From: an uncultured Pseudomonadales bacterium
GTDB lineage: Bacteria; Pseudomonadota; Gammaproteobacteria; Pseudomonadales; UBA7239
Direction of reading: 5' to 3'
Assembly: GCA_964403125.1 (NCBI GenBank)
Contig: CAYOEO010000002.1
Span: 632 to 64,631 of the forward strand
Length of the DNA stretch: 64,000 nucleotides
The notes under the pieces were generated by a model that worked only from the letters and a program-made list of their open reading frames with translations, made no database searches and was not told the DNA's origin. Of this stretch, positions 9,222 through 47,958 are shown piece after piece. The position numbers and the translations under genes were made by a program. The number at the start of each line of letters is the position of its first letter. Position 1 is the first letter of the stretch.

Positions 9222-10013
9222 TCAGCGGTGAATCAGGCCGTCGAGCGGTGAGGAGGCGCTGGCGTACAATTTGCGCGGCATACGACCGGCGAGAAAGGCT
9301 TCGCGCCCCGCTTCCACTGCTTTTTTCATCGCACTCGCCATCAATACAGGATTTTGTGCATGGGCAATGGCGCTGTTCATCAGCACTCCATCGCAGCCTA
9401 ATTCCATAGCAATCGAGGCGTCCGATGCCGTGCCGACACCGGCATCAACGATGATGGGTACGCTCGCGTTTTCTAAAATCATCATCAAGTTGTAAGGATT
9501 GCGTATGCCGAGACCGGAACCGATCGGCGCGCCCAGCGGCATCACCGCGCAGCAACCGATTTCTTCGAGGCGTTTGGCGACCAGTGGGTCATCGCTGGTG
9601 TACACCATCACATCAAAACCGTCTTTCACCAATTCTTCAGCGGCGATTAGCGTTTCGGTGACGTTGGGGAATAAAGTTTTTTGATCGCCCAACACTTCGA
9701 GTTTTACCAGCTTGTGACCGTCCAACAATTCGCGCGCCAGCTTGCAAGTGCGCACCGCTTCCACTGCGGTATAGCAGCCGGCGGTGTTGGGCAGAATGGT
9801 GTAGCGCGAGGGCGGCACTACATCCAACAAATTAGGTTCATTGGGGTTTTGACCGATATTGGTGCGGCGCACGGCGACGGTAATCATCTCTGCGCCAGAT
9901 GCTTCGGTGGCGGCAGCGGTTTCCGCGAGATCTTTGTATTTGCCGCTGCCGACAATCAAGCGCGAGCCGTAAGTTTTCCCCGCGATAACAAGAGGTTTGT
10001 CTGTTGTGCTCAT
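9222..10013 (-). CDS. thiG: Thiazole synthase
   Basis: [34 protein letters not shown]. Confidence 0.98.
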
Positions 10014-10015
10014 GG

Positions 10016-10216
10016 TTAGCCTCCGCCGATGGCATGCACAATTTCCACGCGATCACTGTTATGCAAAACGGTGCTGGCGTGTGTGCTGCGCGGCACGATG
10101 GTTTCATTGATTTCGATGGCAACGCGTTTGCCTGCCAAGCCTAGTTGTTCAAGTAGTTGCGCGGTGGTGGTACCGTCTGGCACAGAAGTGCTTTCACCGT
10201 TCAGAACAATTTGCAC
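10016..10216 (-). CDS. thiS: Sulfur carrier protein ThiS
   Basis: GTG start at 10216 gives 66 aa ending EIVHAIGGG; immediately upstream of thiG. Confidence 0.95.
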
Positions 10217-10218
10217 GT

Positions 10219-10602
10219 TTACTGCCCTTTGAAGCCGGCGTAAACCAAGCAAGCCCACGCCGCCAGCCACAACACACCGCCGATTGGGGTAATGGCACCG
10301 AGCCAGCGGATGCCACTCAAACTCAGCACATAGAGGCTGCCGCTAAACAGCACAATGCCCGCAAGAAACAGCCATCCGCTGATAGTCAGTGCGCGTGTAT
10401 TGAAACCTTGCGCCATCAAAATGCCTACGCCGAATAAAGCCAGTGTGTGCCAGAACTGGTACTGCACGGCGGTGTGCCAAACGGCGAGCAAATCTGCGGA
10501 TAGGCGATTTTTCAAACCGTGCGCGCCAAAGGCACCTAAGGCAACGGCGAGAAAGCCGCTCAGGGAAGCCAGAGCAATAAACAGAGAGGGCGGAAAAGGC
10601 AT
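10219..10602 (-). CDS. DUF423 (YgdD/TMEM256) membrane protein
   Basis: GAFGAHGL, TAVQYQFWH, FSGSLY, GAITPIGG; usual Pseudomonas-type position upstream of thiS. Confidence 0.9.
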   Translation of the reverse strand: MPFPPSLFIALASLSGFLAVALGAFGAHGLKNRLSADLLAVWHTAVQYQFWHTLALFGVGILMAQGFNTRALTISGWLFLAGIVLFSGSLYVLSLSGIRWLGAITPIGGVLWLAAWACLVYAGFKGQ

Positions 10603-10762
10603 GGAAAACTCAAAAATGGACAGCGGCGGCATTGTAGCAGTTTGCATTGTTAGGATAGTGGCGCGGTGGAATTTCACCTGCGTCAAGCATTCAGCGCGTA
10701 TCGCCGGAATGGTAGAATGCCCGCCCTTTTCCGTTTCGTTAAAGCCTTCAGAGGAGTCCGTT

Positions 10763-11890
10763 GTGGATCTCGATTTCAGCGAAGAACAAGTGATGCTGCG
10801 CGATACCGCGCGCGGTATTTGTGAAGAATTGTCGCCGTCTGCCGTGGTGCGGGCGATGGAGCAGGATGAGGCTGGTTACTCCGCCCCGTTCTGGCAGCAG
10901 TTGGCGGAATTGGGTATTACCAGTTTGGGTATTCCGGAAGCGCACGGCGGTATGGCCTGGGGCGCGCTGGAAATGGCGATTGTGTACGAAGAGTTCGGTC
11001 GCTCACTCGCGCCCAGCCCGCATTGGGCGAGCTGTGTGTTGTCGGCGAAATTGTTGGAGTTGGCCGGCACGGCGCAACAGCAGGAAAGCTTTTTGTCTGG
11101 CATTGCCAGCGGTGAAGTCATCATTGTGCCAGCGCATTTGGAGCCAAAAAATGGTTTTGGTGCCGAAGGTGTGCAACTGCGCGCGGTAAAACAAGGTGAT
11201 GGCTATGTATTGAATGGCACAAAATTGATGGTGCCGTTTGCCGCTTCAGCCACACGCTTGCTGGTGTTGGCGCGCGCCGGCGAAGGTGTGCAAGATGTGA
11301 TCGGCGTGTTGGTGGATCCCAAAGCCGCTGGCGTTACGCTGACACGCGAACGCAATCACGCTGACGACACTGTATTTCAAGTTGATTTCAAAAATGTTTC
11401 CGTCAATGCAAGCGATGTGTTGAACACAGCCGGTTTTTGGGCGGCGTGGGAAAATGCAATGACGCATTCCATCGTTGCATTAGCGGCGCGCTCGATTGGC
11501 GCCGCAGAAGCGATTCATGCGATGACAGTCGATTACGCCAAGCAGCGCGTGCAGTTCGGTAAGCCCATTGGTTCTTTTCAAGCGATCGCACATTATCTGG
11601 CAGATTTAATCGTCAAAATCGAAGGTGCAAAAGTGTTGGTGTATCAAGCGGCATGGGCGATTGATAACAACAAACCTTTCGAAAAAATTGCCCTGCAAGC
11701 GAAACTGCAAGCCTGCAATGTGTTGCGCGATGCTTCAGCAATCGGCGTACAAGTACACGGCGGTTTTGGTTTTACTTCCGAAGGTGATCCGCAGTTGTAT
11801 TTCCGTCGCGCCAAACATTGGCAGTTGACCAACTGGGACAGTGCTTATTTAGAAAAACGCATCGCAGCGTTAATTCTCGACGCGGCGTAA
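10763..11890 (+). CDS. Acyl-CoA dehydrogenase family protein, probable non-catalytic subunit of a heterotetramer
   Basis: GTG after GAGGAG; FSEEQVMLRD, RVQFGKPIGSFQAI, QVHGGFGFT; C-terminal YEG(T) motif absent. Confidence 0.88.
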   Translation: MDLDFSEEQVMLRDTARGICEELSPSAVVRAMEQDEAGYSAPFWQQLAELGITSLGIPEAHGGMAWGALEMAIVYEEFGRSLAPSPHWASCVLSAKLLELAGTAQQQESFLSGIASGEVIIVPAHLEPKNGFGAEGVQLRAVKQGDGYVLNGTKLMVPFAASATRLLVLARAGEGVQDVIGVLVDPKAAGVTLTRERNHADDTVFQVDFKNVSVNASDVLNTAGFWAAWENAMTHSIVALAARSIGAAEAIHAMTVDYAKQRVQFGKPIGSFQAIAHYLADLIVKIEGAKVLVYQAAWAIDNNKPFEKIALQAKLQACNVLRDASAIGVQVHGGFGFTSEGDPQLYFRRAKHWQLTNWDSAYLEKRIAALILDAA

Positions 11891-11903
11891 TGAGGTAAAT
11901 GCG

Positions 11904-12785
11904 ATGAAACTTCTTGAAGGAAAAGCAGCAATTGTGACCGGCAGCGGTCGCGGTGTGGGGCGCGGTCACTGTCTGCATTTGGCAAAAAACGGTGCGAAAG
12001 TTGTCGTCAACGACATTCTGTTGGAAGAAGCGCAAAAAGTGGCCGATGAAATTAAAGCGGAGGGCGGTGAAGCGATTGCCAGCAATGCAGACATCGGCTC
12101 ACGCGCCGGCTGTGAATTGCTCGTGCAGCAGTGTGTGGATGCCTTTGGCGGTATTGATATTGCCATCAACAACGCCGGTATTGTGCGTGATAAAACCTTG
12201 TTGAAATTGGAAGATGCCGATTTCGATATCGTGTGGCGTATTCACGTCATGGGCACATTCTGGATTGCACAAACTGCCGCGAAAAAAATGATCGAACAGG
12301 GTCGCGGCGGCTCCATCATCAACACCACTTCGGGCGCACATTTCGGCAGCTTTGGTCAAACCAATTACTCTGCCGCCAAAGGCGCAATCGCTTCCATGAC
12401 CTACACTTGGGCGATGGAATTGGCAAAACACGGCATACGCGTGAATGCGATTGGTCCACTCGCCACTACACATATGTCGGCGACTTTTTCTGATGCAGAC
12501 AAAATGCCGTTTTTTCCACCTGAAAATAACGGCCCTATCGTTTGCTGGTTGTGCAGCGATGAAGCGAATTATGTGTCCGGCCAAATTTTTGGCACGGGCG
12601 GCGATCGCATTTCACACATGGTGCAACCGCATTACGGTAAAACTTTGATCAAGCCGGGCGGTTGGGAAATCGACGATATTCGTCAGCATTTCAAACAACA
12701 TATTCCGCCAGAATTTGGCGCGTTTGGTATGTTGGGTAAACCGTATCCATTTCATGCCGGCGTGAAACCGCCAGTGAAGGAGTAA
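11904..12785 (+). CDS. SDR family oxidoreductase (3-hydroxyacyl-CoA dehydrogenase-like, C-terminally extended)
   Basis: TGSGRGVG, NNAGIVRD, NYSAAK (YxxxK). Confidence 0.92.
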   Translation: MKLLEGKAAIVTGSGRGVGRGHCLHLAKNGAKVVVNDILLEEAQKVADEIKAEGGEAIASNADIGSRAGCELLVQQCVDAFGGIDIAINNAGIVRDKTLLKLEDADFDIVWRIHVMGTFWIAQTAAKKMIEQGRGGSIINTTSGAHFGSFGQTNYSAAKGAIASMTYTWAMELAKHGIRVNAIGPLATTHMSATFSDADKMPFFPPENNGPIVCWLCSDEANYVSGQIFGTGGDRISHMVQPHYGKTLIKPGGWEIDDIRQHFKQHIPPEFGAFGMLGKPYPFHAGVKPPVKE

Positions 12786-12790
12786 ACAAT

Positions 12791-14242
12791 ATGGCAGGCA
12801 TTATTTCTCACGGCGCGTACATTCCGCGCATGCGTTTGCCTTTATCTGTGATTGCAGGCAAAGCGCCGAAAGAAGGCGGGCCAGAAAAAGCCGTCGCGTG
12901 GATGGATGAAGATAGTGTGACCATGGCGGTCGCCGCTGCACAAAATTGTTTGCAAGGTTTTGATCGTGCGCGCGTGGACGCGGTGTTGTTTGCTACCACG
13001 ACTTACGCGTTTGCAGAAAAACAAGGCGCGGCGATTATTGCCAAAGCCTTAAATCTGAAAGGCGATGTGCGCACGGCGGATATTTCGCACAGCACACGCG
13101 CTGGCACGATTGCACTGCAATCAGCTATTGACGCTGTGAAAGCGGGCAGCGCGCAACGCGTGTTGGTGATTGCGGCGGATTGCCGCATGGGCGCGCCGGG
13201 CTCTGGCTTCGAAGCCAATACTGGCGATGCCGCCGCCGCATTTTTAGTCGGCGCAGAAGGCGCGATTGCGACACTGGATTGCGCTTGCGCACACACCACA
13301 GAAATCATCGACATCTGGCGTAAACAGGGCGACCGTTTTGTGCACGGCTGGGAAGATCGTTTCGTCAATGTGCACGGTTATATCGAAAACACTGTCGCAG
13401 CAATTCAGGGTTTGGTGGCAAAAAGCGGTGCCGCTTTATCTTCCATCAACAAAGCCGTTTTATACGCGCCGGAAGCGCGCTTACTCGGTGAAATGAGCAA
13501 AGCGGCGGGTGTTGCCAAAGAGCAAATCCAAGATCCGTTGTTTGGCAAAGTGGGCAATGCCGGTACCGCGTTTGCGCCCTTGTTGTTGATTGCGGCATTG
13601 GAACAAGCGCAAGCGGGTGAAAAAATTCTGGTCGCCAATTACGGTGACGGTGCCGACGCTTTATTGGTTTCTGTCAACGGTGCGCGTGTAAAAGCAGAAG
13701 GGCATCGCAGCGTGAGTGCATTGTTGGCGCGTCGCAAAGTCGTCGACGCTTACGGCAAATACATGAAAGCGCGCGGTTTGACGATCACGGAATATCCCGA
13801 AGTAGACGATCAAGGTATTTCTGCCACTGTGCATTTCCGTGAGCGCGATGAAGATTTGTCGCTCGAAGGGCAGCAGTGTTCGCATTGCGGCACGCATCAA
13901 TTTCCGAAAGGTCGTGTGTGCGTGCGCTGTCACAGCAAAGATCAGTGGACACCCGCTTGCTACAGCGATTTAACGGGTAGTGTTGTGACTTACACACTGG
14001 ATGCATTTTTTCCTTCGCCAGAGCCGCCAACAGCAGTGGGCATTATCGAAGTGAAAAATGCAGACGGCTCGGCTGGAGCGCGCATCCACATGCAAATTTG
14101 CGAAACTTTTGCCAAAGATATTGCGGTAGATTTGCCAGTGGAATTTACTTTCCGCTGCATCCACCGCGTGGGTCAACGCCCCAATTATTTCTGGAAATGT
14201 ACGCCGATTGTTTCTGCCTCTGTTGAAGGAGTTGCCGCATGA
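12791..14242 (+). CDS. HMG-CoA-synthase/KAS-III-like fold fused to DUF35 Zn-ribbon/OB-fold domain
   Basis: N-terminal YIPRMRL, DEDSVTMAVAAA, VGNAGTA; C-terminal CSHC-x10-CVRC and GSVVTYT...ARIHMQI OB-fold. Confidence 0.85.
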   Translation: MAGIISHGAYIPRMRLPLSVIAGKAPKEGGPEKAVAWMDEDSVTMAVAAAQNCLQGFDRARVDAVLFATTTYAFAEKQGAAIIAKALNLKGDVRTADISHSTRAGTIALQSAIDAVKAGSAQRVLVIAADCRMGAPGSGFEANTGDAAAAFLVGAEGAIATLDCACAHTTEIIDIWRKQGDRFVHGWEDRFVNVHGYIENTVAAIQGLVAKSGAALSSINKAVLYAPEARLLGEMSKAAGVAKEQIQDPLFGKVGNAGTAFAPLLLIAALEQAQAGEKILVANYGDGADALLVSVNGARVKAEGHRSVSALLARRKVVDAYGKYMKARGLTITEYPEVDDQGISATVHFRERDEDLSLEGQQCSHCGTHQFPKGRVCVRCHSKDQWTPACYSDLTGSVVTYTLDAFFPSPEPPTAVGIIEVKNADGSAGARIHMQICETFAKDIAVDLPVEFTFRCIHRVGQRPNYFWKCTPIVSASVEGVAA

Positions 14243-15402
14243 GCATTAAAGACAAAGTGGCAATCGTCGGCGTGGGTTGCTGTAAGTTCGGTGAGAACTG
14301 GGATAAATCTGAAGAAGACATGATTGTCGATGCGGCGTACGAAGCGTATGCCGATGCCGGCATCACTGAACCCGCTAAACAAATTGATGCGATTTATTGC
14401 GGCTCTTTGTACACCAAAAACGGCCCCGTGGAAGTCAGTGAAGCGCTCAAATTGTATAAACCGCTCACCGCTGTTTCCAATTATTGCGCCACAGGAACGG
14501 AAGCGTTTCGCGCGGGCGTGATGGCGATTGCAGCGGGTGTGTACGACACGGTGTTGGTCGTCGGTTACGACAAACCGAAAGATCGCGGTGTGTCCGGCCC
14601 CAGCGTCAACATCAAAGGTGTGCGCGATTTGCCTGCGACGCCTGCGGGTTGGTTTGCCATGTGCGCCGCGCCCTACTTCAAAAAATTTGGCGCAGGCCGT
14701 GAAGATTTGGCAAAAATTGCGGTAAAAAATCACTACAACGGCACGCTGTCACCGAAATCTTTTTTGAAAAAAGTGATTACAGAAGACGACGCGCTCAATG
14801 GCCGCATGATTTCTTGGCCTTTTGGTTTGTACGATTGCGCCGCGCAATCAGACGGCGCTGCCGTTGCAGTAATTACCAAGGCTTCATTAGCAAAAAATTT
14901 TCGCGATGATCCCGTGTATGTCAAAGCCGTGGCGAGTGGCTCGGCGGCGAATCCGCACACCGACCCTGATCACGATTTCTTGCGTTGGAAGCCGACAGAA
15001 AATGCGGCGGCAGAAGCGTACAAAATCGCTGGCATCAGCAATCCGTTCAAAGAAATTCATATCGCGCAAGTGCACGATTGCTTCACTCTCACCGAATTGT
15101 TGGCGTATGAAGATTTAGGGTTTATCCCAAAAGGCTCCGCGAAAGAGCACATCGCCAACGGCACGTTCACCTTGAAAGGTGAGTTGCCGGTGAATACCGA
15201 CGGCGGCTTGAAAACCTTCGGTCACCCCACTGGTGCAACCGGTGTGCGCATGATTGTGGAAAATGTGTTGCAGTTGCAGGGGCGTGCGGACAAACGCCAA
15301 TTGTCGCAGCACAACGGCAAACAACCGACGATGGCGCTGACACATAATATCGGTGGTTTCCCAACAGGGTGCGCCGTGAGCATTATCGGCATTGATAAAT
15401 AA
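14239..15402 (+). CDS. SCP2/SCPx-type thiolase-like acetyl-CoA acyltransferase
   Basis: VAIVGVG..KFGE, NYCATG, HDCF, GHPTGATG; start overlaps previous stop (ATGA coupling). Confidence 0.9.
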   Translation: MSIKDKVAIVGVGCCKFGENWDKSEEDMIVDAAYEAYADAGITEPAKQIDAIYCGSLYTKNGPVEVSEALKLYKPLTAVSNYCATGTEAFRAGVMAIAAGVYDTVLVVGYDKPKDRGVSGPSVNIKGVRDLPATPAGWFAMCAAPYFKKFGAGREDLAKIAVKNHYNGTLSPKSFLKKVITEDDALNGRMISWPFGLYDCAAQSDGAAVAVITKASLAKNFRDDPVYVKAVASGSAANPHTDPDHDFLRWKPTENAAAEAYKIAGISNPFKEIHIAQVHDCFTLTELLAYEDLGFIPKGSAKEHIANGTFTLKGELPVNTDGGLKTFGHPTGATGVRMIVENVLQLQGRADKRQLSQHNGKQPTMALTHNIGGFPTGCAVSIIGIDK

Positions 15403-15421
15403 GTGCAGCGAGGTGATCGCG

Positions 15422-15967
15422 ATGAACGCAAGGATGTGTAAAGTTTTTCTGATTCTGTTGGCAATGGGGCTGGCAGGCTGTGTTGCGATGACAGAACCGA
15501 AAGAGCGTGCAGCGCCGGAGACAGTGTCTTTGGCGCTCAACCAACAAGATGTGCAATACATGTGTGCATCGCCCATTTATTTGAGCGATGTAACAAAAAG
15601 TTTTTCATTGCCTTTGGGCAGTAATGATCGCACGGTGGCGATGGGTGCTTTGCTCAATCAAGCCGTACAAAAAATGTTTTGGAAAGAAACCAAAGCGGGT
15701 AATGTCGTCGCACCGGTGGTGACTTTGGGTTTTGATGGTGGCACAGGTGCTTATCGCGATAGCACGCTGTATGTGCGCATCAGTTTGCAATTTCAAATTT
15801 TCAAACCGACCGGACAGTCGTACATGGATATTGCTGTTGGTGAATCGTCCTCTGATTCCGCGCCAGATTCTAGTGATGGCGCCGTGGTCAATGCTGCGTT
15901 GCAGCAAGCGCTGGGACGATTGGCTGGCGTGTTAAAAAGCGCGGGCATTTGCCGTGCCATGCGTTAA
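15422..15967 (+). CDS. Hypothetical lipoprotein
   Basis: ATG after GAGGTG; signal peptide ending in LAGC lipobox. Confidence 0.75.
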   Translation: MNARMCKVFLILLAMGLAGCVAMTEPKERAAPETVSLALNQQDVQYMCASPIYLSDVTKSFSLPLGSNDRTVAMGALLNQAVQKMFWKETKAGNVVAPVVTLGFDGGTGAYRDSTLYVRISLQFQIFKPTGQSYMDIAVGESSSDSAPDSSDGAVVNAALQQALGRLAGVLKSAGICRAMR

Positions 15968-16022
15968 AAAACGCGTTAAAAAAGATGAGAAAAAACAAGA
16001 GAAAACATAAAAAGGTTTTGTT

Positions 16023-16838
16023 ATGAATTTTGAAACACTCACCTATGCCGTTACCGATGGTGTCGCTGTTATCTCGTTGAATCGCCCGCAACAGCGCAAC
16101 GCGGTGAATTCAGTGATGAGTCGTGAATTGCCGCAAGTGTGGCAATACTTTAATCAGGACAAATCGGCGGTGGTTGCAATTCTCACGGGCGCTGGTGATA
16201 AAGCACTGTGCACGGGCGCAGATTTAGCCGATCTGCCAGAAACCGATGGCGAAGTTGACGATCAAGGTCGCAAGTTTGGCACGCTGGCTTCTATCAAGTG
16301 GACATCGCTACAAAATCGCATTTGGAAACCAGTGATTTGTGTTGTCAATGGCATGGTGGTGGGCGGTGGTCTGCATTTTGTGGCAGATTCCGACATTGTG
16401 ATTGCCGCAGATTCGGCCACATTTTTTGATACGCATGTGAAAGTGGGATTGGTTGCCGGTTTAGAGCCTGTCAGCTTAGTGCGCAAAATGCCGTTTGATG
16501 CGGTGATGCGCATGGCATTGACCGGTGGCAACGAACGCATGACGGCGCAGCGTGCATATGAACTGGGCATGATCAGTGAAGTGGTACCAGCGGCAGAATT
16601 GATGCAACGCGCGCACGCTTTAGCGGATTTAATCAAAACCAATTCACCTGTTGCTTTGGCGCGTACAAAAAAAGCAGTGTGGGAAGCGAAAGAAGTGGGA
16701 CTGCACGCCGGTTTGGAAAACGCGTGGCAATACATCATGGCGCAAAACACGCACCCTGATATTGCGGAGGGCGGCAAAGCATTTATGGAGCGCCGCGCGC
16801 CGCAGTGGCAGCCGTATGCAGGTGAATGTGACGATTGA
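16023..16838 (+). CDS. Crotonase-superfamily protein (enoyl-CoA hydratase/isomerase-like)
   Basis: ISLNRPQQRNA, CTGADL, VNGMVVGGG, TAQRAYELGMISEVVP. Confidence 0.92.
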   Translation: MNFETLTYAVTDGVAVISLNRPQQRNAVNSVMSRELPQVWQYFNQDKSAVVAILTGAGDKALCTGADLADLPETDGEVDDQGRKFGTLASIKWTSLQNRIWKPVICVVNGMVVGGGLHFVADSDIVIAADSATFFDTHVKVGLVAGLEPVSLVRKMPFDAVMRMALTGGNERMTAQRAYELGMISEVVPAAELMQRAHALADLIKTNSPVALARTKKAVWEAKEVGLHAGLENAWQYIMAQNTHPDIAEGGKAFMERRAPQWQPYAGECDD

Positions 16839-16850
16839 TGTGACTGCGCA

Positions 16851-17192
16851 ATGAATGAAGCGGCGGAACAACCGTTTTGCGTAGTGCTGATAACAGCAGT
16901 GCATCGCGCAGAAGCGGAATGCCTCGCGCATTTGTTAGTAGAACAACAGTTAGCAGCCTGTGTGCAATTGCTGCCGATAGATAGCGTTTATGTTTGGGAA
17001 AATACGGTAAAAAAGGATTCTGAAGTGTTGATGCTAATCAAAACTTCAAAAGCCAATTTCGTCAGCATTGAGGTTTTAATTAAACAGCATCACAGTTATC
17101 AGGTACCTGAAATCATTCAGTTACCGATTGAGCAAGGCTCTGCCGCGTATTTGCAATGGCTTGCAGATGCTGTGGGCGAAAAAAAACATTAA
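16851..17192 (+). CDS. cutA: Divalent-cation tolerance protein CutA
   Basis: LAACVQL, SVYVWE, HSYQVPEII, YLQWL. Confidence 0.93.
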   Translation: MNEAAEQPFCVVLITAVHRAEAECLAHLLVEQQLAACVQLLPIDSVYVWENTVKKDSEVLMLIKTSKANFVSIEVLIKQHHSYQVPEIIQLPIEQGSAAYLQWLADAVGEKKH

Positions 17193-17206
17193 CTTGAGGT
17201 GAAAAA

Positions 17207-18358
17207 ATGTCAGACCCTATCATCATCGTTGGCACAGGATTATCTGGTTATACATTGGGTAAAGAGTTTCGTCGTCACGACAAAGAAACGCCTTTGTTGT
17301 TTATCACTACGGATGATGGTCGCAATTATTCCAAGCCGATGTTGTCAACGGGGTATACAAAGAAAAAAACGGCAGATGAATTGGCAGTGGCTGATGCCGG
17401 TGCAATGGCAGAGCAATTACAAGCGTCGATTCGCACTTTCGCTAAAGTTACGGCAATTGATCCAGCCAATCACGAAATCAGTATTGGTGATGAAAAATTG
17501 CGTTACAGCAAACTGGTTCTTGCTTGGGGTGCGGAATGTATTCGCGCACCACTGCAAGGTGACGGTCAAGATTTCGTGTATTCCGTGAATGATTTGTTGG
17601 ATTACGCAGAGTTTCGCAAAGCGGCTGTCGGCAAGAAAAAAGTTTTGATTATTGGTGCGGGTTTGATTGGCAGTGAGTACGCCAATGATTTAGCGGCAGG
17701 CGGATACGAAATCGTTGCAGTGGATCCTTTGTCTGGTCCGCTGGGTTCTTTGCTGCCGCCGAAAGCCTCGGCGGCTGTGCAGCACGCGTTAGAGCGTGAT
17801 TGCAAAGTGCATTACCACTTTGGCACGGTCGTTGAAACGATCGACAAAAAAGATGCTGGCATTGTGGCAACGCTGGCCGATGGTTCAAAAGTGGAAGCAG
17901 ATATCGTGCTGTCCGCTGTCGGCATGCGCCCGCGTATCGGCTTGGCGCGTCAATCCGGTATCGCGGTCAATCGCGGCATCACCGTTAATCGTTACTTGGA
18001 AACTTCTGTGCCTGATGTGTATGCCATGGGTGATTGTGCAGAAGTGGAAGGTCATGTGCGTTTTTATGTGCTGCCGTTGATGGCTTGTGCGCGCACACTG
18101 GCAAAAACTTTATCAGGCGAGCGCACGGCTGTGGTTTACGGTCCAATGCCGGTTGGCGTAAAAGTGACCGTGTGTCCGATTCAGTTATCGCCACCGTTGC
18201 ACGGTGCAGTGGGTGAGTGGCAGGAAGAAGTGGATGGTGACAATGTGCGCTCACTGTTCCGAGGTCCAGAAGGTGATTTGTTGGGCTTTGCTTTGACTGG
18301 CAAGTGCACAGAACAAAAAACAGAATTGGCGAAAGAATTGCCCAATATTCTCGCGTAA
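17207..18358 (+). CDS. rubB: Rubredoxin--NAD(+) reductase
   Basis: IIIVGTGLSGY, YSKPMLST, GAGLIGSEYANDL, GDCAE, YVLPLM; 383 aa like pseudomonad RubB/AlkT. Confidence 0.85.
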   Translation: MSDPIIIVGTGLSGYTLGKEFRRHDKETPLLFITTDDGRNYSKPMLSTGYTKKKTADELAVADAGAMAEQLQASIRTFAKVTAIDPANHEISIGDEKLRYSKLVLAWGAECIRAPLQGDGQDFVYSVNDLLDYAEFRKAAVGKKKVLIIGAGLIGSEYANDLAAGGYEIVAVDPLSGPLGSLLPPKASAAVQHALERDCKVHYHFGTVVETIDKKDAGIVATLADGSKVEADIVLSAVGMRPRIGLARQSGIAVNRGITVNRYLETSVPDVYAMGDCAEVEGHVRFYVLPLMACARTLAKTLSGERTAVVYGPMPVGVKVTVCPIQLSPPLHGAVGEWQEEVDGDNVRSLFRGPEGDLLGFALTGKCTEQKTELAKELPNILA

Positions 18359-18376
18359 TTTTTGTTCGGAAAACAT

Positions 18377-18408
18377 AAGGCAGGCTTGCAAACAAGTCTG
18401 CCTTTTTT
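18377..18408 (+). terminator. Rho-independent terminator after rubB
   Basis: AAGGCAGGCTTG-caaa-CAAGTCTGCCTT plus T-tract. Confidence 0.85.
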
Positions 18409-39557: not shown

Positions 39558-40883
39558 ATGTTTTACGTAGATGATTCAGGGCACATCAGAATGAATAAAA
39601 AAATCACGTCCCTTGGACTGCTCGCAACATCTTTGCGCAGCGTAGCCATGGTCACTGTATTGCTGGCGACAGCCGTTTCTGCTTCAGCACAAGAAACGGC
39701 GGTGTCTGCACAAAATGCATCAACCAATAGCCAAGAACCTGCTATCAAAAGCGCCAAAGTGGCGCAGTCGTTGCTGCAAGACATCACGCGCATTGGTGAC
39801 CGCCTCGTGGTAGTGGGTGAGCGCGGACATATCGCCACCTCTGACGACAATGGCAAAACATGGCAGCAAGCCGAAGTGCCGACACGCGCCATGATGAATG
39901 CAGTATTTTTTATCTCGCCAACCCAAGGCTGGGCCGTGGGTCACGATGAATTGGTTCTGCACACGATCGATGCCGGTAGAACGTGGACGATTCAATTAGA
40001 CGGTTTGAAATTTACGCGCAAACGTATGGCGGACAGCATTCCTACACTGGAAGCTAAACTCAAAGAATTAGAAGCCAATAAAAAAGCAGCGGAAGATCAA
40101 TTGGATGGCTTGAAACCTGCTGATGATGGCGCGGCTGCCAGTGGCGGCGATGAAGATGGTGAGGCGGCTGATGGCGCGCACGATCAAGTTGAAAATATGG
40201 TGACAGAGCTGGATGACAAAATTGCCACCGCAGAAACAGATTTATCCGATGCCAAAGAAGCGTTGAGCAACACGGTAGCGAATCCTTTGATGGATGTGTG
40301 GTTCCGCGATGAACACACTGGCTACGCGGTTGGTGCTTTCGGCGAATTTATTATGACGACGGACGGCGGTACCACGTGGACCAGCATCGCTGATCGTTTG
40401 AATAATCCCGATAAAAACCATCTCAACGCTATCGTAGGTGACGCAAACGGTTTGATGTATATCGCTGGTGAAGCAGGGCATGTTTACCGCAGCACTAATG
40501 GCGGCACGAGCTGGACACAGTTGGAGTCGCCAGATCCAGAAAACGGCTCTTTCTTTGCTATCAATATCGTTTCTGCCAATGAAGTATTTATTGCTGGTTT
40601 GCGCGGCGTGATGTACCGCTCGTTAGATCGCGGCGAAAGCTGGAAGCAAATTACCGAAGAGATGCATAAAAACATTAATACTGTGTACTTCGTCGATAAA
40701 GACACGGTACTTGCGGTAGGCAATGACGGCTCATTTTTGAGAAGTCGCGACGGTGGACGCACCTTCCAACAATATTCTCGCAAAGACAGATTAACCGTTG
40801 CGTCGGTAACGGTTGCCGCAGACGGTAATTACATTCTTGTTGGCGCTGGCGGTGTAGAAATCGTGTCGCCTGCTAGTTTGTAA
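39558..40883 (+). CDS. YCF48-like/BNR beta-propeller periplasmic protein with helical insertion
   Basis: Signal peptide; repeated S/T-D-x-G-x-T-W (SDDNGKTW, TIDAGRTW, TTDGGTTW, STNGGTSW, SLDRGESW, SRDGGRTF); start 39558 or 39591. Confidence 0.88.
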   Translation: MFYVDDSGHIRMNKKITSLGLLATSLRSVAMVTVLLATAVSASAQETAVSAQNASTNSQEPAIKSAKVAQSLLQDITRIGDRLVVVGERGHIATSDDNGKTWQQAEVPTRAMMNAVFFISPTQGWAVGHDELVLHTIDAGRTWTIQLDGLKFTRKRMADSIPTLEAKLKELEANKKAAEDQLDGLKPADDGAAASGGDEDGEAADGAHDQVENMVTELDDKIATAETDLSDAKEALSNTVANPLMDVWFRDEHTGYAVGAFGEFIMTTDGGTTWTSIADRLNNPDKNHLNAIVGDANGLMYIAGEAGHVYRSTNGGTSWTQLESPDPENGSFFAINIVSANEVFIAGLRGVMYRSLDRGESWKQITEEMHKNINTVYFVDKDTVLAVGNDGSFLRSRDGGRTFQQYSRKDRLTVASVTVAADGNYILVGAGGVEIVSPASL

Positions 40884-40942
40884 ACAGTGTTTCCATTTTG
40901 AAATCAAACAGAACAATAACTTTAAGCTAGAGGTTGAGCAGT

Positions 40943-43402
40943 ATGGCTGGAGCAGCGCGTCAATACGGTGAGCCGTACCGTTACGGTGACGAAGAAAAAA
41001 GAATGGAGAAGTTGATTTTTAATCATCGCCCCATTTGGCTGGTGATTATTGCAGTGTTGACGCTGTATTTTGGTTATGAAATGACCAAAATTAAGATTGA
41101 TGCGCGCTTTGAGAAAATGCTGCCCATGCAGCATGAGTATCTGAAAAATATGTTCAGTCGTCTTGATGATTTAACGCAGAAAGGCCTGTCTTTTAAAATC
41201 GCTATCGAAAACACGCAGGGCGATATTTTTGATAAAGAGTATTTGCAAGTTGTGCAAAACGTGCACGACAAAGTATTCAATATCAACGGCGTTGACCGCA
41301 CCTCATTGCGCTCTATGTGGGCACCTTCAGTGCGTTGGCAGGCGGTAACGCCGCAAGGTTTTGATGGGGATCGTCTCATTCCTGGTGAATACGATGGCAG
41401 TCCAGAAAGTTTAGAGCGCGTTAAATTAAACGTGTTTCGTTCAACAGAAATTGGACGTTTGATTTCAGATAATTTCAAATCGTCTATAGTTGAGGCGTAT
41501 GTTTTCTCAACGTATCCCAATGATGATGATCGCGGTCATAAAGCCGGCGACACGATTGATTTCCAAGATCTAGGTAATATTTTAGAAGACATTCGCGCGG
41601 ATGTTAACAAGAAATACAACGGTAAATATCGCGTTTACATCATTGGCGAACCCAAAATGATCGGTGATTTCATCACCGGCTCTAGCCAGATAGTTTTGTT
41701 CGGCGGTATCGCGCTCGTTATTACCATCATTCTTTTGTATTTGTATGCGCGTTGCTGGCGTGCAGCTTTGATGCCGTTGTTTACATCAGTCATTGCTGTG
41801 GTTTGGATGCTCGGTATTTTGAGTGTGATGTCACATTTCAACGTGCCCTACGGCAACGTGCCGGTGAAAGTGAACGGCGTTATGGAAAACGTCGAAGTGT
41901 TTTCCGGTATTGGTTTGTTCTCCATGTTGGTGCCATTTTTGTTGGTAGCAATCGGCGTAAGTCACAGCGTGCAGTACGTGAATGCCATGGCGGTGGAAAT
42001 GGCGCATGGACACAACAAACTGCAAGCAAGCCGTCGCGCTTTCCGAACCAACTATTTGCCAGGCATCACCGCGTTGCTGACTAACGCTTTTAGCTTTTTG
42101 ACCATGGTGTTGATTCCTATTTCAGCGATTAAAGAATTGGCGTTTACCGCGTGTATTGGTACGGCTGTATTGATCGTATTGAAACTGATGTTGCTGCCGA
42201 TACTGCTGTCTTATTCCGGTATTACTCCATCGGGCATCAGGCACATGCAGTTGAGTGAAGAAAAGGATTCACCCATCTGGCTTTTCTTGGCGAGGTTCAC
42301 GGAATCGCGCTGGGCAATTGTTGCTTTGATTTTTGCTGGCGCACTGGCGGTCTACAGTGTGTATGAAAGACAATTTCTCAAAATTGGTGATATCGCTGAA
42401 GGTTCGCCAGAGTTGCGCCCTGATTCCACCTACAACAAGGATGTGAAATTTATTACATCAAACTATGCCACGAGTTCTGATTTGTTTGTGGTGATGGTGA
42501 CCACAGTGCCGGGTGAGTGCTTCAAGCAAAAAAACATGGAAGCGATGGATGATTTGGAGTGGGCGCTTAACAACACCGAAGGTGTGCAAGCAACAGCATC
42601 AGCAGCATTTGTGGCAAAAAACTTTATCGCTGGTTTGACGGAGGGTCATATCAAATGGATGACGCTGGGGCGCAACCAAGAAGCGATTGATGGCTCATTC
42701 AATATCACCGCAGATATGGGCTTGGTGAACGAGAAATGCAGCTTTGCTCCGGTGGTTGCGTTCTTGAAAGATCACAAAGCAGAAACGCTTGATCGTGTTG
42801 CTAAAGTTGTAAAAGCTTTTGCGGATCAGCACAACACGGCGGATATTAAATTCCTTTTAGCGACAGGTAATGCAGGTATTGCTGCGGCGGTCAACCAAGA
42901 AATTCATTCAGCGCAGAACAAAATGTTGTGGTTGGTGTACGCCGTAGTTGCCGCGTTGGTGTTCTTCACTTTCCCCTCTATCAAAGCGATGCTTTGTATT
43001 TTGGGTCCATTGGCACTGACATCTATTTTGTGTGAAGCCTTGATGGCGAAGCTGGGCATCGGTGTCAAAGTGGCAACATTGCCCGTTATTACTTTGGGTG
43101 TTGGTGTCGGTGTGGATTACGGGATTTATATTTACAGTCGCATGGAAAGTTATTTCAAAGAAGGCAAATCACTGCGCGACTCTTATTTGTTGACACTAAA
43201 AACGACAGGCAAAGCGGTGAGCTTCACTGGTTTGACTTTGGCGTTTGGTGTAGCAACGTGGTATTGGTCCGCTATTCAATTCCAAAAAGACATGGGTATT
43301 TTGTTGGTGTTCATGTTCCTTTGGAACATGGCCGGTGCATTGACACTACTCCCTGCCTTGGCGCATTTCTTATTGCCCAAAGGCGGGAAAGCTGCGACCT
43401 AA
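40943..43402 (+). CDS. RND superfamily (MMPL/HAE-like) transporter
   Basis: Two periplasmic loops with two TM bundles; AIGVSHSVQ and GVGVDYGIY motifs; start 40943 or 41003. Confidence 0.9.
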   Translation: MAGAARQYGEPYRYGDEEKRMEKLIFNHRPIWLVIIAVLTLYFGYEMTKIKIDARFEKMLPMQHEYLKNMFSRLDDLTQKGLSFKIAIENTQGDIFDKEYLQVVQNVHDKVFNINGVDRTSLRSMWAPSVRWQAVTPQGFDGDRLIPGEYDGSPESLERVKLNVFRSTEIGRLISDNFKSSIVEAYVFSTYPNDDDRGHKAGDTIDFQDLGNILEDIRADVNKKYNGKYRVYIIGEPKMIGDFITGSSQIVLFGGIALVITIILLYLYARCWRAALMPLFTSVIAVVWMLGILSVMSHFNVPYGNVPVKVNGVMENVEVFSGIGLFSMLVPFLLVAIGVSHSVQYVNAMAVEMAHGHNKLQASRRAFRTNYLPGITALLTNAFSFLTMVLIPISAIKELAFTACIGTAVLIVLKLMLLPILLSYSGITPSGIRHMQLSEEKDSPIWLFLARFTESRWAIVALIFAGALAVYSVYERQFLKIGDIAEGSPELRPDSTYNKDVKFITSNYATSSDLFVVMVTTVPGECFKQKNMEAMDDLEWALNNTEGVQATASAAFVAKNFIAGLTEGHIKWMTLGRNQEAIDGSFNITADMGLVNEKCSFAPVVAFLKDHKAETLDRVAKVVKAFADQHNTADIKFLLATGNAGIAAAVNQEIHSAQNKMLWLVYAVVAALVFFTFPSIKAMLCILGPLALTSILCEALMAKLGIGVKVATLPVITLGVGVGVDYGIYIYSRMESYFKEGKSLRDSYLLTLKTTGKAVSFTGLTLAFGVATWYWSAIQFQKDMGILLVFMFLWNMAGALTLLPALAHFLLPKGGKAAT

Positions 43403-43431
43403 TGCTGTTTTGATGCCGTGTAAAAATGACT

Positions 43432-43459
43432 AAAGCCCGTGGTTTGCACGGGCTTTTTA
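43432..43459 (+). terminator. Rho-independent terminator after RND gene
   Basis: AAAGCCCGTG-gtttg-CACGGGCTTT-TT. Confidence 0.85.
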
Positions 43460-43502
43460 TTTGCAACGATTTTTAATTTTGCTTGAGAAAAAAGGAGTCA
43501 TT

Positions 43503-45107: not shown

Positions 45108-45125
45108 TGCGCTAGGTATTGATGT

Positions 45126-46991: not shown

Positions 46992-47001
46992 TTGTGATTG
47001 T

Positions 47002-47640
47002 TTAGCTCGGTTCTTCGATGTTGAGGTAGCCGGCAGCCAGCACGGCTTGTGTGCGGTTCCTGACGCCTAGTTTGCGAAAGATGGCCGTCATGTGTGTGCG
47101 GACAGTGGCTTCCGAAACATTCACTTCGCCAGCAATTTGTTTGTTCAGCAATCCTTTCGTTAGCATCATAAATACGCGCAGTTGCTGCGGTGTCAGTGTC
47201 TTGAGGCGTTGCGCAAATTCGCGTTCGGCGTTATCAGCCCTCTGTGGCAAATGAGTCGGTAGCCATAGCGATCCATCCAAAATACTTTGTAGCGCTGTGG
47301 CTATTTGGCTCAAGTCAGACGCTTTAGGGATAAAACCAGAAATACCGTATTCGATGGCGCGCTGTACGATGCTGTAATCGTCACTGGCAGAAATGACCAC
47401 CACAGGAATATCAGGGTATTGCCCGCGGATGAGTACTAAGCCGGAAAAGCCATTCGCTCCTGGCATGCGCAAGTCCAGCAAAATCAGATCCACCTCGCTT
47501 TGCTGTGCAAGCAGGCTTTCTAGGGAGTCAATGCTGTCGCATTCCAAAATGTTGGCATCTTTCACTACCTGTTTGACAGCTTGGCAGAGCGCGTTGCGAA
47601 AAAGAGGGTGATCATCGGCAATAACAATATTGGTGCTCAT
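47002..47640 (-). CDS. LuxR/NarL family response regulator (CrbR/ErdR-like)
   Basis: IADDHPLFR, LLDLRMPG, GFIPK, LTPQQ...NKQIA...TVRTHMTAIFRKLGVRNRTQA. Confidence 0.92.
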   Translation of the reverse strand: MSTNIVIADDHPLFRNALCQAVKQVVKDANILECDSIDSLESLLAQQSEVDLILLDLRMPGANGFSGLVLIRGQYPDIPVVVISASDDYSIVQRAIEYGISGFIPKASDLSQIATALQSILDGSLWLPTHLPQRADNAEREFAQRLKTLTPQQLRVFMMLTKGLLNKQIAGEVNVSEATVRTHMTAIFRKLGVRNRTQAVLAAGYLNIEEPS

Positions 47641-47958
47641 GGCGCTTACGGCTGCTTTTCGGAAAGGTGGCTATCATAAACAAAAAAAGCCGCTGGAAGC
47701 CTGAATGACAGATTGTTCCCAGTGAACTATCGATAAAAAACCGTTTTTTTGTAACCATGGGTAACATTTCTATCTCTGATGGATGCTATTTCACACTTCA
47801 GCCGAGCATTGTGTGCTGAGTGGCTAAAAAATAAGGAAATTTTACTTTGCACTTTACGGTTTTTTCTGGCTTAATCCTGCACCGTGAGTCTTTCTGTATG
47901 CCGTAAAACTGATGCGGTCTACATGGGAATAACAAATAACACCAACACGGGCGGAGCA

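Follow-up and report, generated by a model that had tools for sequence, protein, structure and literature searches.

We identified, in a 64-kb stretch of DNA from an uncultured Pseudomonadales bacterium (the window), a 483-aa fusion protein that is probably the non-catalytic subunit of a thiolase complex performing the last step of a dedicated β-oxidation turn. The protein has an HMG-CoA synthase (HMGS)-like domain that lacks the Glu, Cys and His on which Claisen condensation depends. A zinc-ribbon/OB (DUF35) module at the C-terminus of the protein would clamp this domain to the SCP2-type thiolase encoded immediately downstream, a role modelled on the archaeal thiolase/HMGS/DUF35 complex and on the PhlABC and MucABC complexes. 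Unlike in those complexes, the two accessory parts would here be a single chain.

Chemistry would take place in the thiolase only, with Cys83 becoming acylated and the HDCF and GH histidines assisting; cleavage of a 3-oxoacyl-CoA would release acetyl-CoA and a shorter acyl-CoA. The HMGS-like domain, itself dead, may stabilise the thiolase and would probably supply half of a shared CoA/acyl chamber. In the proposed turn, an acyl-CoA dehydrogenase would act first, followed by an enoyl-CoA hydratase, an MFE-2-type dehydrogenase and the thiolase complex. The sequence data show the architecture, the lost residues, the intact thiolase and the conserved synteny; from these we infer the association of fusion and thiolase, the direction of the reaction and the class of substrate. 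A bulky substrate, attached to a ring or branched at C3 or C2, is likely by analogy with BbsAB and with the orthologous module in the oestrogen 4,5-seco cluster. The analogy is weak for this organism because the upstream oestrogen-pathway genes (IOR, dioxygenase, P450) are absent from the window.

Architecture and residue substitutions of the fusion

The fusion consists of an archaeal-type HMGS fold, a four-Cys zinc ribbon and a probable OB fold in one chain (Table 1). Archaeal HMGS 6esq_I aligns with residues 3-329 (phmmer, E = 4.4e-38), a match nearly equalled by PhlA (1.3e-33). The original prediction proposed a structural comparison with archaeal HMGS and PhlA. An AlphaFold model of the fusion (pLDDT 78, pTM 0.82, with pLDDT <50 at linker residues 332-352) resembles both in Foldseek searches, with TM (target) 0.85 and E = 7e-27 for archaeal HMGS 6et9_I and TM 0.82 for PhlA 5mg5_A. 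The C-terminal part had been read as carrying a CSHC-x10-CVRC motif and an OB fold; the motif is upheld and the OB fold is probable. The motif (residues 363-380) lies in a zf-ChsH2 match (Pfam accession PF12172, residues 357-383) that scores 32 bits against a cutoff of 23.2, and the archaeal DUF35 chain 6esq_E aligns with residues 350-473 (E = 3.6e-5). The OB_ChsH2_C match (Pfam accession PF01796, residues 395-455) is weak, at 19 bits and under the cutoff of 27.1; residues 386-472 form β-strands in the model, which is all-β in this part.

Table 1. Coordinates of the fusion, its parts and the neighbouring features in the window.
Feature	Coordinates	Strand	Details
Acyl-CoA dehydrogenase	10763..11890	+	375 aa; Pfam Acyl-CoA_dh N, M and C domains
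SDR, MFE-2 / 17β-HSD4 type, putative (3R)-hydroxyacyl-CoA dehydrogenase	11904..12785	+	Pfam adh_short
HMGS-like/DUF35 fusion ORF	12791..14242	+	483 aa
HMGS-like (KAS-III fold) domain	12791..13780	+	Residues 1-330; alignment to 6esq_I and PhlA, Foldseek, residue counts
Linker	13781..13846	+	Residues 331-352; low model confidence
Rubredoxin-like zinc ribbon (zf-ChsH2)	13859..13939	+	Cys363, Cys366, Cys377, Cys380; PF12172
Probable OB-fold part of DUF35 module	13946..14206	+	~Residues 386-472; ends in family motif RPNYFWK
SCP2/archaeal-ACAT-type thiolase	14239..15402	+	387 aa; NCBIfam NF004810, PDB relatives, motifs
Small predicted lipoprotein	15422..15967	+	Lipobox LAGC; between thiolase and hydratase
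Crotonase-family enoyl-CoA hydratase	16023..16838	+	Pfam ECH_1; PDB 3tlf_A 2.5e-53
Strongest terminator-like hairpin after the gene run	18377..18404	+	12 pairs, then TTTTATT

Of the four catalytic residues of HMGS, the fusion retains one. The phmmer alignment with 6esq_I places Thr70 (12998-13000) at the catalytic Glu position (ATTTYAFA opposite GSESHPYA), Thr102 (13094-13096) at the catalytic Cys position (ADISHSTRAGT opposite ADLEFACKAGT) and Tyr225 (13463-13465) at the catalytic His position (AVLYAPEA opposite CVFHQPNG), in agreement with the substitutions first read from the motifs DISHSTRAGT, ATTTYAF and LYAPE. Asn256 (13556-13558), the remaining residue of the tetrad, is kept (VGNAG opposite LGNTY). 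These substitutions are a property of the family and not a matter of chance. Among 120 full-length fusion homologues, all have Thr at the Glu position and none has His at the His position; at the Cys position, 104 have Leu, 14 have Thr and 2 have Val. The four zinc cysteines are kept in all 120. Ser101 was considered as an alternative nucleophile, as in DpsC-type Ser enzymes, and was rejected: the alignment is ungapped between the AD and AGT anchors, which puts Ser101 one residue ahead of the elbow, a site that in the family is occupied variably by Leu, Thr or Val.

Sequence constraint extends over the whole protein. Conservation of at least 97% is found at 115 of the 483 positions, including positions in the low-confidence loop 171-191 and in the linker, which is nearly invariant at E334, G342, S344, A345, T346, R350 and R352. 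Conservation values are similar in the HMGS-like domain (0.575), the linker (0.577), the zinc ribbon (0.579) and the OB fold (0.543). This strong constraint, in the loop and linker as elsewhere, is in keeping with a subunit that makes specific contacts.

That the dead domain is so highly conserved could also mean that it binds a ligand or catalyses a reaction itself, perhaps acting in hydrolysis, decarboxylation or substrate delivery. Such a function would draw on other conserved residues, among them E76-K77-Q78, D130/R132 and D174-W176-R177...H185-W187-E188. Conservation equal to that of the DUF35 part is unusually high for a scaffold, and "other activities" have been speculated on for a related protein (PMC7793797). 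We nevertheless consider a non-silent domain unlikely. First, the elbow carries no conserved nucleophile. Second, many of the conserved motifs (DED, DxR..PG, DxWR) also occur in genuine HMGS and may serve the structure or the binding of CoA. Finally, a single mutation in the thiolase of a related complex from Pseudomonas fluorescens nearly abolished activity (PMC12960953).

Probable partner thiolase and β-oxidation module

The TGA stop codon of the fusion overlaps the ATG of the thiolase gene by 4 nt (ATGA). This overlap is read from the window alone, since ORF calls in related loci were extended to the most upstream start and give unreliable intergenic distances there. Translational coupling of the two genes and their synteny support a complex. 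The thiolase scores 412 bits against NCBIfam NF004810 (cutoff 403), and its solved relatives in the PDB include 7yvy, 4yzo, 6esq_A and 7pxp_C. Its catalytic set is intact, comprising Cys83 (14485-14487), His279-Asp-Cys-Phe282 (15073-15084) and Gly328-His329 (15220-15225), and the Cys83, HDCF and GH residues are invariant in 72 of 72 orthologues. With its dead residues, its fold and the adjoining thiolase, the fusion conforms to the original prediction of a one-chain silent HMGS-like/DUF35 protein paired with a thiolase-fold enzyme.

In the large majority of about 80 related loci, the gene directly 3' of the fusion encodes an orthologous thiolase (64-98% identical); a matching thiolase ORF was clustered in 67 loci. 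Five Myxococcota loci (L049, L061, L067, L068 and L073) have no cognate thiolase within 10 kb of the fusion, and there the hydratase gene follows the fusion directly. The pairing of fusion and thiolase is thus not obligatory in cis.

The fusion and thiolase genes are embedded in a module of genes for an acyl-CoA dehydrogenase, a (3R)-type SDR, the fusion, the thiolase and an enoyl-CoA hydratase that is conserved in about 80 loci. Most loci, which range from Pseudomonadales to Myxococcota and Binatia, have the SDR directly upstream of the fusion and one or two hydratases downstream. In the window, the likely start of the dehydrogenase is a GTG at 10763 preceded by GAGGAG, as also inferred from an orthologue (locus L011) that begins MDLDFNEEQ; the 511-aa ORF that starts at 10355 is over-extended. 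The best solved relatives of the SDR are (3R)-hydroxyacyl-CoA dehydrogenase 2et6_A (2.8e-82) and 17β-HSD4 (1gz6/1zbq). The best partial NCBIfam match of the hydratase is EchA19. Crotonase hydratases usually yield (3S) products. Judged by its relatives, the SDR looks (3R)-specific, and this stereochemical mismatch counts against a β-oxidation turn.

The lipoprotein gene between the thiolase and hydratase genes is an uncertain member of the module. Its product has no Pfam match and no assigned family, and it is kept only in close relatives (31-69% identity in L004-L011). Other neighbours of the fusion/thiolase pair encode CutA and a rubredoxin reductase, and the rest of the window is housekeeping. 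From its sequence, the hairpin listed in Table 1 possibly ends a transcription unit from 10763 to 18358; in a promoter/terminator scan of the region, counts were at the level of chance, and so was the total of terminator-like sites.

The (3R)-type SDR also bears on whether the pair could instead be biosynthetic, catalysing a non-decarboxylative Claisen condensation for reversed β-oxidation or for ACP-independent fatty-acid-type synthesis. A (3R)-specific SDR of MFE-2 type has the stereochemistry used in synthesis, and fatty-acid synthesis is the function assigned to KT/DUF35 pairs of archaea (bioRxiv 10.1101/2024.07.05.601840). A biosynthetic role is quite improbable, however, on four counts. 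The first enzyme of the operon is an FAD acyl-CoA dehydrogenase and not an enoyl reductase using NAD(P)H. Related loci belong to catabolic clusters that also encode dioxygenases, IOR and CoA ligases. In the archaeal complex, an active HMGS pushes the unfavourable condensation forward, and the HMGS-like domain is dead here. Finally, the P. fluorescens complex made no acetoacetyl-CoA (PMC12960953). An isoleucine-type (2-methylacetoacetyl-CoA) role was also considered, given the content of IOR, acyl-CoA dehydrogenase, hydratase, SDR and thiolase genes; nothing specific supports it.

Comparison with related thiolase complexes

All three parts of the window system find their best matches, in sequence and in fold, in the archaeal thiolase/HMGS/DUF35 complex, and the archaeal thiolase likewise carries an HDxF motif. 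It differs in having an active HMGS that pulls condensation forward, in being built of three separate chains and in serving the anabolic mevalonate pathway. The catabolic SCP2-type benzoylsuccinyl-CoA thiolase BbsAB (7PXP) is among the SCP2-type thiolases assisted by DUF35. It resembles the window pair in its HDxF motif and in its zinc-ribbon DUF35 partner, on which it depends, and its operon, like the window module, includes genes for an acyl-CoA dehydrogenase, a hydratase and an SDR (BbsD against the window SDR, 1.3e-40). BbsA is a stand-alone DUF35 protein without an HMGS-like domain, unlike the window fusion.

Like the window pair, PhlABC (PpATase) and MucABC (SmaATase) join a catalytic subunit of thiolase fold to two accessory parts, one HMGS-like and silent, the other a zinc ribbon with an OB fold. 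Their subunits are separate chains encoded in PKS or NRPS-PKS clusters, whereas in the window the two accessory parts are fused and no PKS is present. A fused complex from P. fluorescens, ACAT/HMGS-DUF35, has been expressed and assayed (Liao et al., Nat Commun 2026; PMC12960953). It synthesised neither HMG-CoA nor acetoacetyl-CoA and thiolysed acetoacetyl-CoA, an activity that was nearly abolished by mutation of the HDxF histidine in the thiolase and that was absent in the two acylases, PhlABC and MucABC (PMC12960953). Judged on shared features and not on direct alignment, the window pair closely parallels this complex: both have HMGS-like and DUF35 parts in one chain, a lost tetrad, a partner ACAT-type thiolase with Cys, HDxF and GHx, and no PKS or NRPS genes nearby. 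The Asn of the tetrad is kept in the window protein, unlike in the P. fluorescens complex, a minor difference.

The class had therefore already been described in 2026, and a "HMG-CoA synthase" of an oestrogen cluster was noted in 2020 (PMC7793797), so that the novelty implied by the original prediction does not hold. The window protein adds a member to the class, and the addition lies in its genomic context. Fused loci have been called "minimal" and described as an "evolutionary intermediate" that no pathway has recruited (PMC12960953); the window pair, by comparison, is embedded in a tightly conserved module with acyl-CoA dehydrogenase, SDR and hydratase genes. Conservation of this surrounding β-oxidation module across phyla argues against the view of an intermediate without a pathway.

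The original prediction left open whether the complex is a PhlABC-like acyltransferase or a retro-Claisen enzyme; the evidence fits thiolysis and turns against acyl transfer. In the latter case, the fusion would correspond to PhlA plus PhlB in a Friedel-Crafts C-acyltransferase of the PhlABC/MucABC type, which would transfer acetyl to a small aromatic or enolic acceptor, either from acetyl-CoA or between phenolics. The near-equal sequence match and high TM score of PhlA, the dead HMGS-like subunit shared with PhlA and MucA, and a DAPG-hydrolase-family gene located three genes downstream in one related locus (L001) point in this direction. Several observations make such an acyltransferase very unlikely. 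First, PhlC and MucB lack the HDxF motif (PMC12960953), and the thiolase keeps as HDCF the motif whose loss marks those two proteins. Second, the thiolase is far closer to archaeal ACAT 6esq_A (1.8e-43) and BbsB 7pxp_C (6.7e-43) than to PhlC (5e-24). Third, PKS and NRPS genes are absent from the window and from the approximately 80 related loci, where the conserved neighbours are acyl-CoA dehydrogenase, SDR and hydratase genes. Finally, the complex assayed from P. fluorescens, also a fused one, acted as a thiolase.

It is still less probable that the partner is a retro-aldolase like Ltp2 or Sal with a DUF35 partner, cleaving a 3-hydroxyacyl-CoA and not a 3-oxoacyl-CoA. DUF35-dependent thiolase-fold aldolases are found in steroid side-chain degradation (PMC12329534, PMC8913865), and Ltp2 6ok1_A is a detectable relative of the window thiolase (7e-29). 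The nucleophilic Cys83 is invariant, however, a 3-hydroxyacyl-CoA dehydrogenase-type SDR is conserved directly upstream, and Novosphingobium sp. ES2-1 and several related loci carry a separate Ltp2-like and DUF35 pair in addition.

There is next to no chance that the fusion is a divergent but working HMG-CoA synthase, which is what many database names (including those given by JGI to many homologues) and its best family matches, which are HMGS models, would have it be: throughout the family, other residues stand in place of the Glu, Cys and His, the scores fall under the cutoffs (NF003274, 214.8 against 244; TIGR00748, 157.8 against 353.35), neither an archaeal HMGS quadruple tetrad mutant nor the P. 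fluorescens complex makes HMG-CoA (PMC12960953), and at the level of sequence this function is refuted. Thousands of such genes are annotated as "HMG-CoA synthase", "OB-fold domain-containing protein" or "zinc ribbon protein", names that invite the false inference of a bacterial mevalonate pathway. Recognition of the proteins as the silent half of a catabolic thiolase would correct the "HMG-CoA synthase" annotation. For enzymology, the fusion would be a further example of a pseudoenzyme retained because its partner requires it, and it may offer a way into thiolases with a tolerance for bulky 3-oxoacyl-CoAs.

Oestrogen-degradation clusters and distribution of the module

A "HMG-CoA synthase" without an assigned role was reported in 2020 in the edc oestrogen cluster of N. 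tardaugens, where the published gene list (EGO55_13555 being the "HMG-CoA synthase") has the same order as the window (PMC7793797). The order acyl-CoA dehydrogenase, SDR, fusion, thiolase and hydratase is also common to the window and plasmid p3 of Novosphingobium sp. ES2-1, in which the dehydrogenase is WP_193829058 and the SDR gene lies directly upstream of the fusion gene. Identities between the window and ES2-1 proteins are 38% for the dehydrogenase, 64% for the SDR, 48.5% for the fusion, 71% for the thiolase and 54% for the hydratase. The ES2-1 protein (WP_193829060, 467 aa) is likewise fused and has lost the same residues. An identity of 48.5% does not justify assuming a common substrate for the two fusions.

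The sphingomonad module is flanked by genes for EdcA (P450), EdcB (extradiol dioxygenase) and EdcC (IOR-type 2-oxoacid oxidoreductase), no homologues of which occur in the window, and also by an Ltp2-like aldolase with DUF35 and HIP-pathway genes, neither of which is in the window. Among the related loci, EdcC-like (IOR-type) oxidoreductases flank the module in 28, and an EdcB-like VOC dioxygenase is encoded near it in three (L003, L014 and L015).

We tentatively raise the possibility that the fusion and thiolase serve, as its dedicated thiolase, a catabolic route that is widespread but unrecognised. The route would begin with meta-cleavage of an alkyl-substituted phenol or catechol to a 2-oxoacid product, which an EdcC-like IOR enzyme would oxidatively decarboxylate to a CoA ester. 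The module of acyl-CoA dehydrogenase, hydratase, (3R)-SDR and thiolase would then shorten the ring remnant, and the dead HMGS chamber would have been kept for binding a bulky ring-attached acyl group, setting substrate specificity. If so, the "HMG-CoA synthase" of oestrogen edc/oec clusters would have a role, a question since 2020, and modules for oestrogen- or alkylphenol-type degradation would be present in uncultured Myxococcota, Binatia and wetland or wastewater Pseudomonadales. The reading of the fusion as the silent half of a thiolase would in itself give a concrete role to this unassigned oestrogen-degradation gene.

A scan of genome contigs returned matches only from the closer subfamily, with P. 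fluorescens absent. The fusion gene was found in no RNA runs; DNA runs place the organism in wetland, soil and wastewater metagenomes. Plasmids of Azoarcus, Rhodococcus and Sphingomonas encode distant fused homologues (31-36% identity) that also lack the Glu and Cys. In these plasmids, a thiolase gene again comes after the fusion gene, within β-oxidation-type clusters.

The HMGS–DUF35 fusion

The best solved match of the fusion in phmmer searches is archaeal HMGS (6esq_I, 4.4e-38, residues 3-329), with PhlA next (9skh_A, 1.3e-33; 5m3k_A, 1.8e-32). Residues 350-473 are matched by the DUF35 chain 6esq_E (3.6e-5). The alignments place Thr70, Thr102 and Tyr225 opposite the HMGS Glu, Cys and His, respectively, and the fourth tetrad residue is kept as Asn256. 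The four cysteines of the CSHC-x10-CVRC motif lie inside a Pfam zf-ChsH2 match above cutoff. The sequence readings of the original prediction are all correct. The fusion scores under both curated HMGS equivalog cutoffs. Its AlphaFold model (pLDDT 78, pTM 0.82), which drew on 23 homologues, was superposed on known structures, a comparison that had been proposed for archaeal HMGS and PhlA; TM scores were 0.85 for archaeal HMGS, 0.82 for PhlA and 0.79 for MucA.

Across 120 full-length homologues, Thr always replaces the Glu (120/120), the Cys site holds Leu, Thr or Val, no sequence keeps the His (0/120) and all four zinc cysteines are invariant. These residue losses are a property of the family. 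Conservation reaches at least 97% at 115 of the 483 positions, and the fusion is under strong constraint. Model confidence is low for the linker (331-352) and a loop (171-191), but both match the folded domains in conservation. We infer that these segments become ordered only against the partner.

The probable partner thiolase and the fused thiolytic class

The thiolase directly downstream is of the SCP2/archaeal-ACAT type (NF004810 match above cutoff). Its best solved relatives are 7yvy, 4yzo, 6esq_A from the archaeal complex (1.8e-43) and the benzoylsuccinyl-CoA thiolase BbsB (6.7e-43). The catalytic set is intact, and across 72 orthologues Cys83, His279-Asp-Cys-Phe282 and Gly328-His329 never vary.

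Co-localised HMGS, ACAT and DUF35 genes have been described at 1,030 bacterial loci, 1,001 of them without PKS or NRPS (Liao et al., Nat Commun 2026; PMC12960953). The expressed Pseudomonas fluorescens complex has a fused HMGS-DUF35 with no E-C-H-N tetrad in its HMGS part, and an ACAT that retains Cys, HDxF and GHx. It formed neither HMG-CoA nor acetoacetyl-CoA but thiolysed acetoacetyl-CoA, an activity abolished by an HDxF His→Tyr mutation (PMC12960953). The Friedel-Crafts enzymes PhlC and MucB are without HDxF and show no thiolysis (PMC12960953). The authors regard such fused complexes as evolutionary intermediates whose pathway recruitment is still to come, and do not discuss catabolism (PMC12960953).

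Judged from the described features, the window pair belongs to this fused thiolytic class by every sequence criterion of that study, and not to the Phl/Muc class. It differs from the P. fluorescens complex in keeping the tetrad Asn, and from PhlC and MucB in carrying HDxF. The original prediction saw the fusion as the silent scaffold of a PhlABC-like acyltransferase or retro-Claisen enzyme of new specificity. The silent scaffold and the retro-Claisen chemistry are supported; the acyltransferase is disfavoured by the HDCF motif of the thiolase and its distant match to PhlC (5e-24). Nor does the proposed novelty hold, as the window pair adds another case to an already described class.

We propose that the thiolase would perform the chemistry, thiolysis of a 3-oxoacyl-CoA supplied by the acyl-CoA dehydrogenase (ACAD), hydratase and SDR encoded alongside it in the operon, with the fusion as its silent, obligate partner. 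The DUF35 part would clamp the two proteins together, and the dead HMGS part would contribute to a CoA/acyl chamber common to both, on the model of the archaeal and Phl/Muc complexes. By analogy with the oestrogen-cluster (edc) module and BbsAB, the favoured substrate is a 3-oxoacyl-CoA carrying a ring or branch beside the keto group. Small substrates would also be accepted, since the P. fluorescens enzyme is active on acetoacetyl-CoA.

Gene neighbourhood and distribution

The window genes around the fusion form a tight run on one strand.

Genes of the fusion–thiolase run
Feature	Position	Strand	Remarks
Acyl-CoA dehydrogenase	GTG start 10763 (probable)	+	preceded by GAGGAG
SDR	11904-12785	+	
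Fusion ORF	12791-14242	+	483 aa
Thiolase	14239-15402	+	ATG overlaps TGA of fusion
Small lipoprotein-like ORF	15392-15967	+	signal …LLAMGLAGC…; between thiolase and hydratase
Enoyl-CoA hydratase	16023-16838	+	
CutA and rubredoxin-reductase-like flavoprotein	within 16851-18404	+	after hydratase; flavoprotein with Rbx_binding domain

The 511-aa acyl-CoA dehydrogenase ORF is too long, and its extension (10355-10762) overlaps an opposite-strand DUF423 gene (10219-10686); the GTG is most likely the true start. The SDR belongs to the MFE-2/17beta-HSD4 type, and its solved relatives include (3R)-hydroxyacyl-CoA dehydrogenase 2et6 (the best, 2.8e-82) and BbsD. The hydratase belongs to the crotonase family and partly resembles EchA19; crotonases usually give (3S) products, a possible stereochemical mismatch with the (3R)-type SDR. 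The lipoprotein-like ORF matched no Pfam family and is kept in the closest relatives only (31-69%); a DUF2846 protein takes its position in the related locus L003. Downstream of the hydratase, we found no strong terminator before a hairpin at 18377-18404. The flavoprotein has no adjoining rubredoxin gene, and CutA/flavoprotein linkage to the module is limited to the closest relatives (L004, L005, L008, L011).

The comparison covered 80 related loci, taken from species-representative genomes, plus a few metagenome loci. The fusion is found in uncultured Pseudomonadales/Cellvibrionales (the window's own clade, 85-93% identical), Pseudomaricurvus alkylphenolicus (58%) and many Myxococcota, Binatia and "Deltaproteobacteria" MAGs (50-57%). 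In the large majority of loci, the gene directly 3' of the fusion encodes an orthologous thiolase (64-98% identical), with a clustered thiolase ORF match in 67 loci. About 45 loci have an SDR directly 5', and about 45 have one or two hydratases directly downstream. De novo clustering identified further neighbours: a two-subunit acyl-CoA dehydrogenase, a luciferase-like oxidoreductase, acyl-CoA synthetases and a ~1,170-aa indolepyruvate-ferredoxin-oxidoreductase-family protein. In five Myxococcota loci (L049, L061, L067, L068, L073), a hydratase comes straight after the fusion (at ~10001-11400) and no cognate thiolase was found within 10 kb; the sole nearby thiolase in L049 is 27% identical and on the opposite strand. 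These fusions may pair in trans or act with something else.

The remainder of the window holds housekeeping genes and, 25 kb off, a cluster (39558-49758) encoding a BNR/Ycf48-like protein, an MMPL/RND-type transporter, a GMC oxidoreductase, a PAS hybrid histidine kinase and a DUF1302 outer-membrane protein. Genes for DUF1302 or DUF1329 proteins recur beside the fusion–thiolase pairs of L085 (Azoarcus KH32C) and L001, a recurrence that may reflect a link to hydrophobic-substrate uptake. In L001, a DAPG-hydrolase-family gene (PF18089, 12687-13517) is third 3' of the pair, beside the DUF1329 gene; it may echo the phl system, because the pair is related to PhlA/PhlB/PhlC.

Oestrogen clusters and plasmid homologues

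The best plasmid match of the fusion (tblastn, 48.5% over 98% of the query) is on p3 of the oestradiol degrader Novosphingobium sp. ES2-1. This plasmid is annotated ACAD–SDR–"OB-fold domain-containing protein" (the 467-aa fusion)–acetyl-CoA acetyltransferase–ECH–ECH. Genes for an Ltp2-like protein, a DUF35 protein and a P450 come next, and a divergent operon encodes two VOC dioxygenase-family proteins and an EdcC-like 2-oxoacid oxidoreductase (IOR). Window and ES2-1 proteins are 38% (ACAD), 64% (SDR), 48.5% (fusion), 71% (thiolase) and 54% (ECH) identical. The edc cluster of N. tardaugens is ordered ACAD, 3-hydroxyacyl-CoA dehydrogenase, "HMG-CoA synthase" (EGO55_13555), thiolase, BadI-like protein, hydratase (Ibero et al., 2020; PMC7793797).

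The window contains no IOR, EdcB-like dioxygenase, P450 of the oestrogen pathway or Ltp2-like/DUF35 pair. Among related loci, 28 have an IOR (50-63% identical to that of ES2-1) no more than 10 kb from the fusion, and five, P. alkylphenolicus among them, have Ltp2-like/DUF35 pairs. An EdcB-like extradiol dioxygenase (43-45%) is encoded 5' of the module in L003, L014 and L015, all three of them gammaproteobacterial. EdcB- and EdcC-like genes in uncultured Pseudomonadales and Myxococcota hint at edc-like pathways well beyond known oestrogen degraders. Conservation of the beta-oxidation module, together with its occurrence in oestrogen clusters, offers a testable physiological role for a class so far called pathway-less.

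An exhaustive HMMER search with the linker and DUF35 part alone (E ≤ 1e-10) matched 325 cluster representatives (50% identity level); by length, 83 of the best 150 are fused (445-560 aa, C-terminal match, counted by eye). Plasmids of Azoarcus sp. KH32C, Rhodococcus qingshengii and Sphingomonas paeninsulae encode fused homologues (31-36% identity) that all lack the Glu and Cys. Each is followed by a thiolase and sits among ACAD, SDR, MaoC or ECH, ETF, and CoA-ligase or -transferase genes. The R. qingshengii plasmid pdjl-6-4 (L086:4100-12580) encodes an AMP-binding CoA ligase and ring-hydroxylating dioxygenase alpha and beta subunits, then the fused homologue and thiolase, then hydratase and ACAD. 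This layout resembles that of the ibuprofen ipf cluster, with its dioxygenase, SCPx thiolase, DUF35 and CoA ligase. The S. paeninsulae homologue (L087:7986-9440) has lost three of four zinc-ribbon cysteines (CTKTG…SDISVNPNDHA) and retains the OB part and YFWK motif, so the zinc site is dispensable in some lineages.
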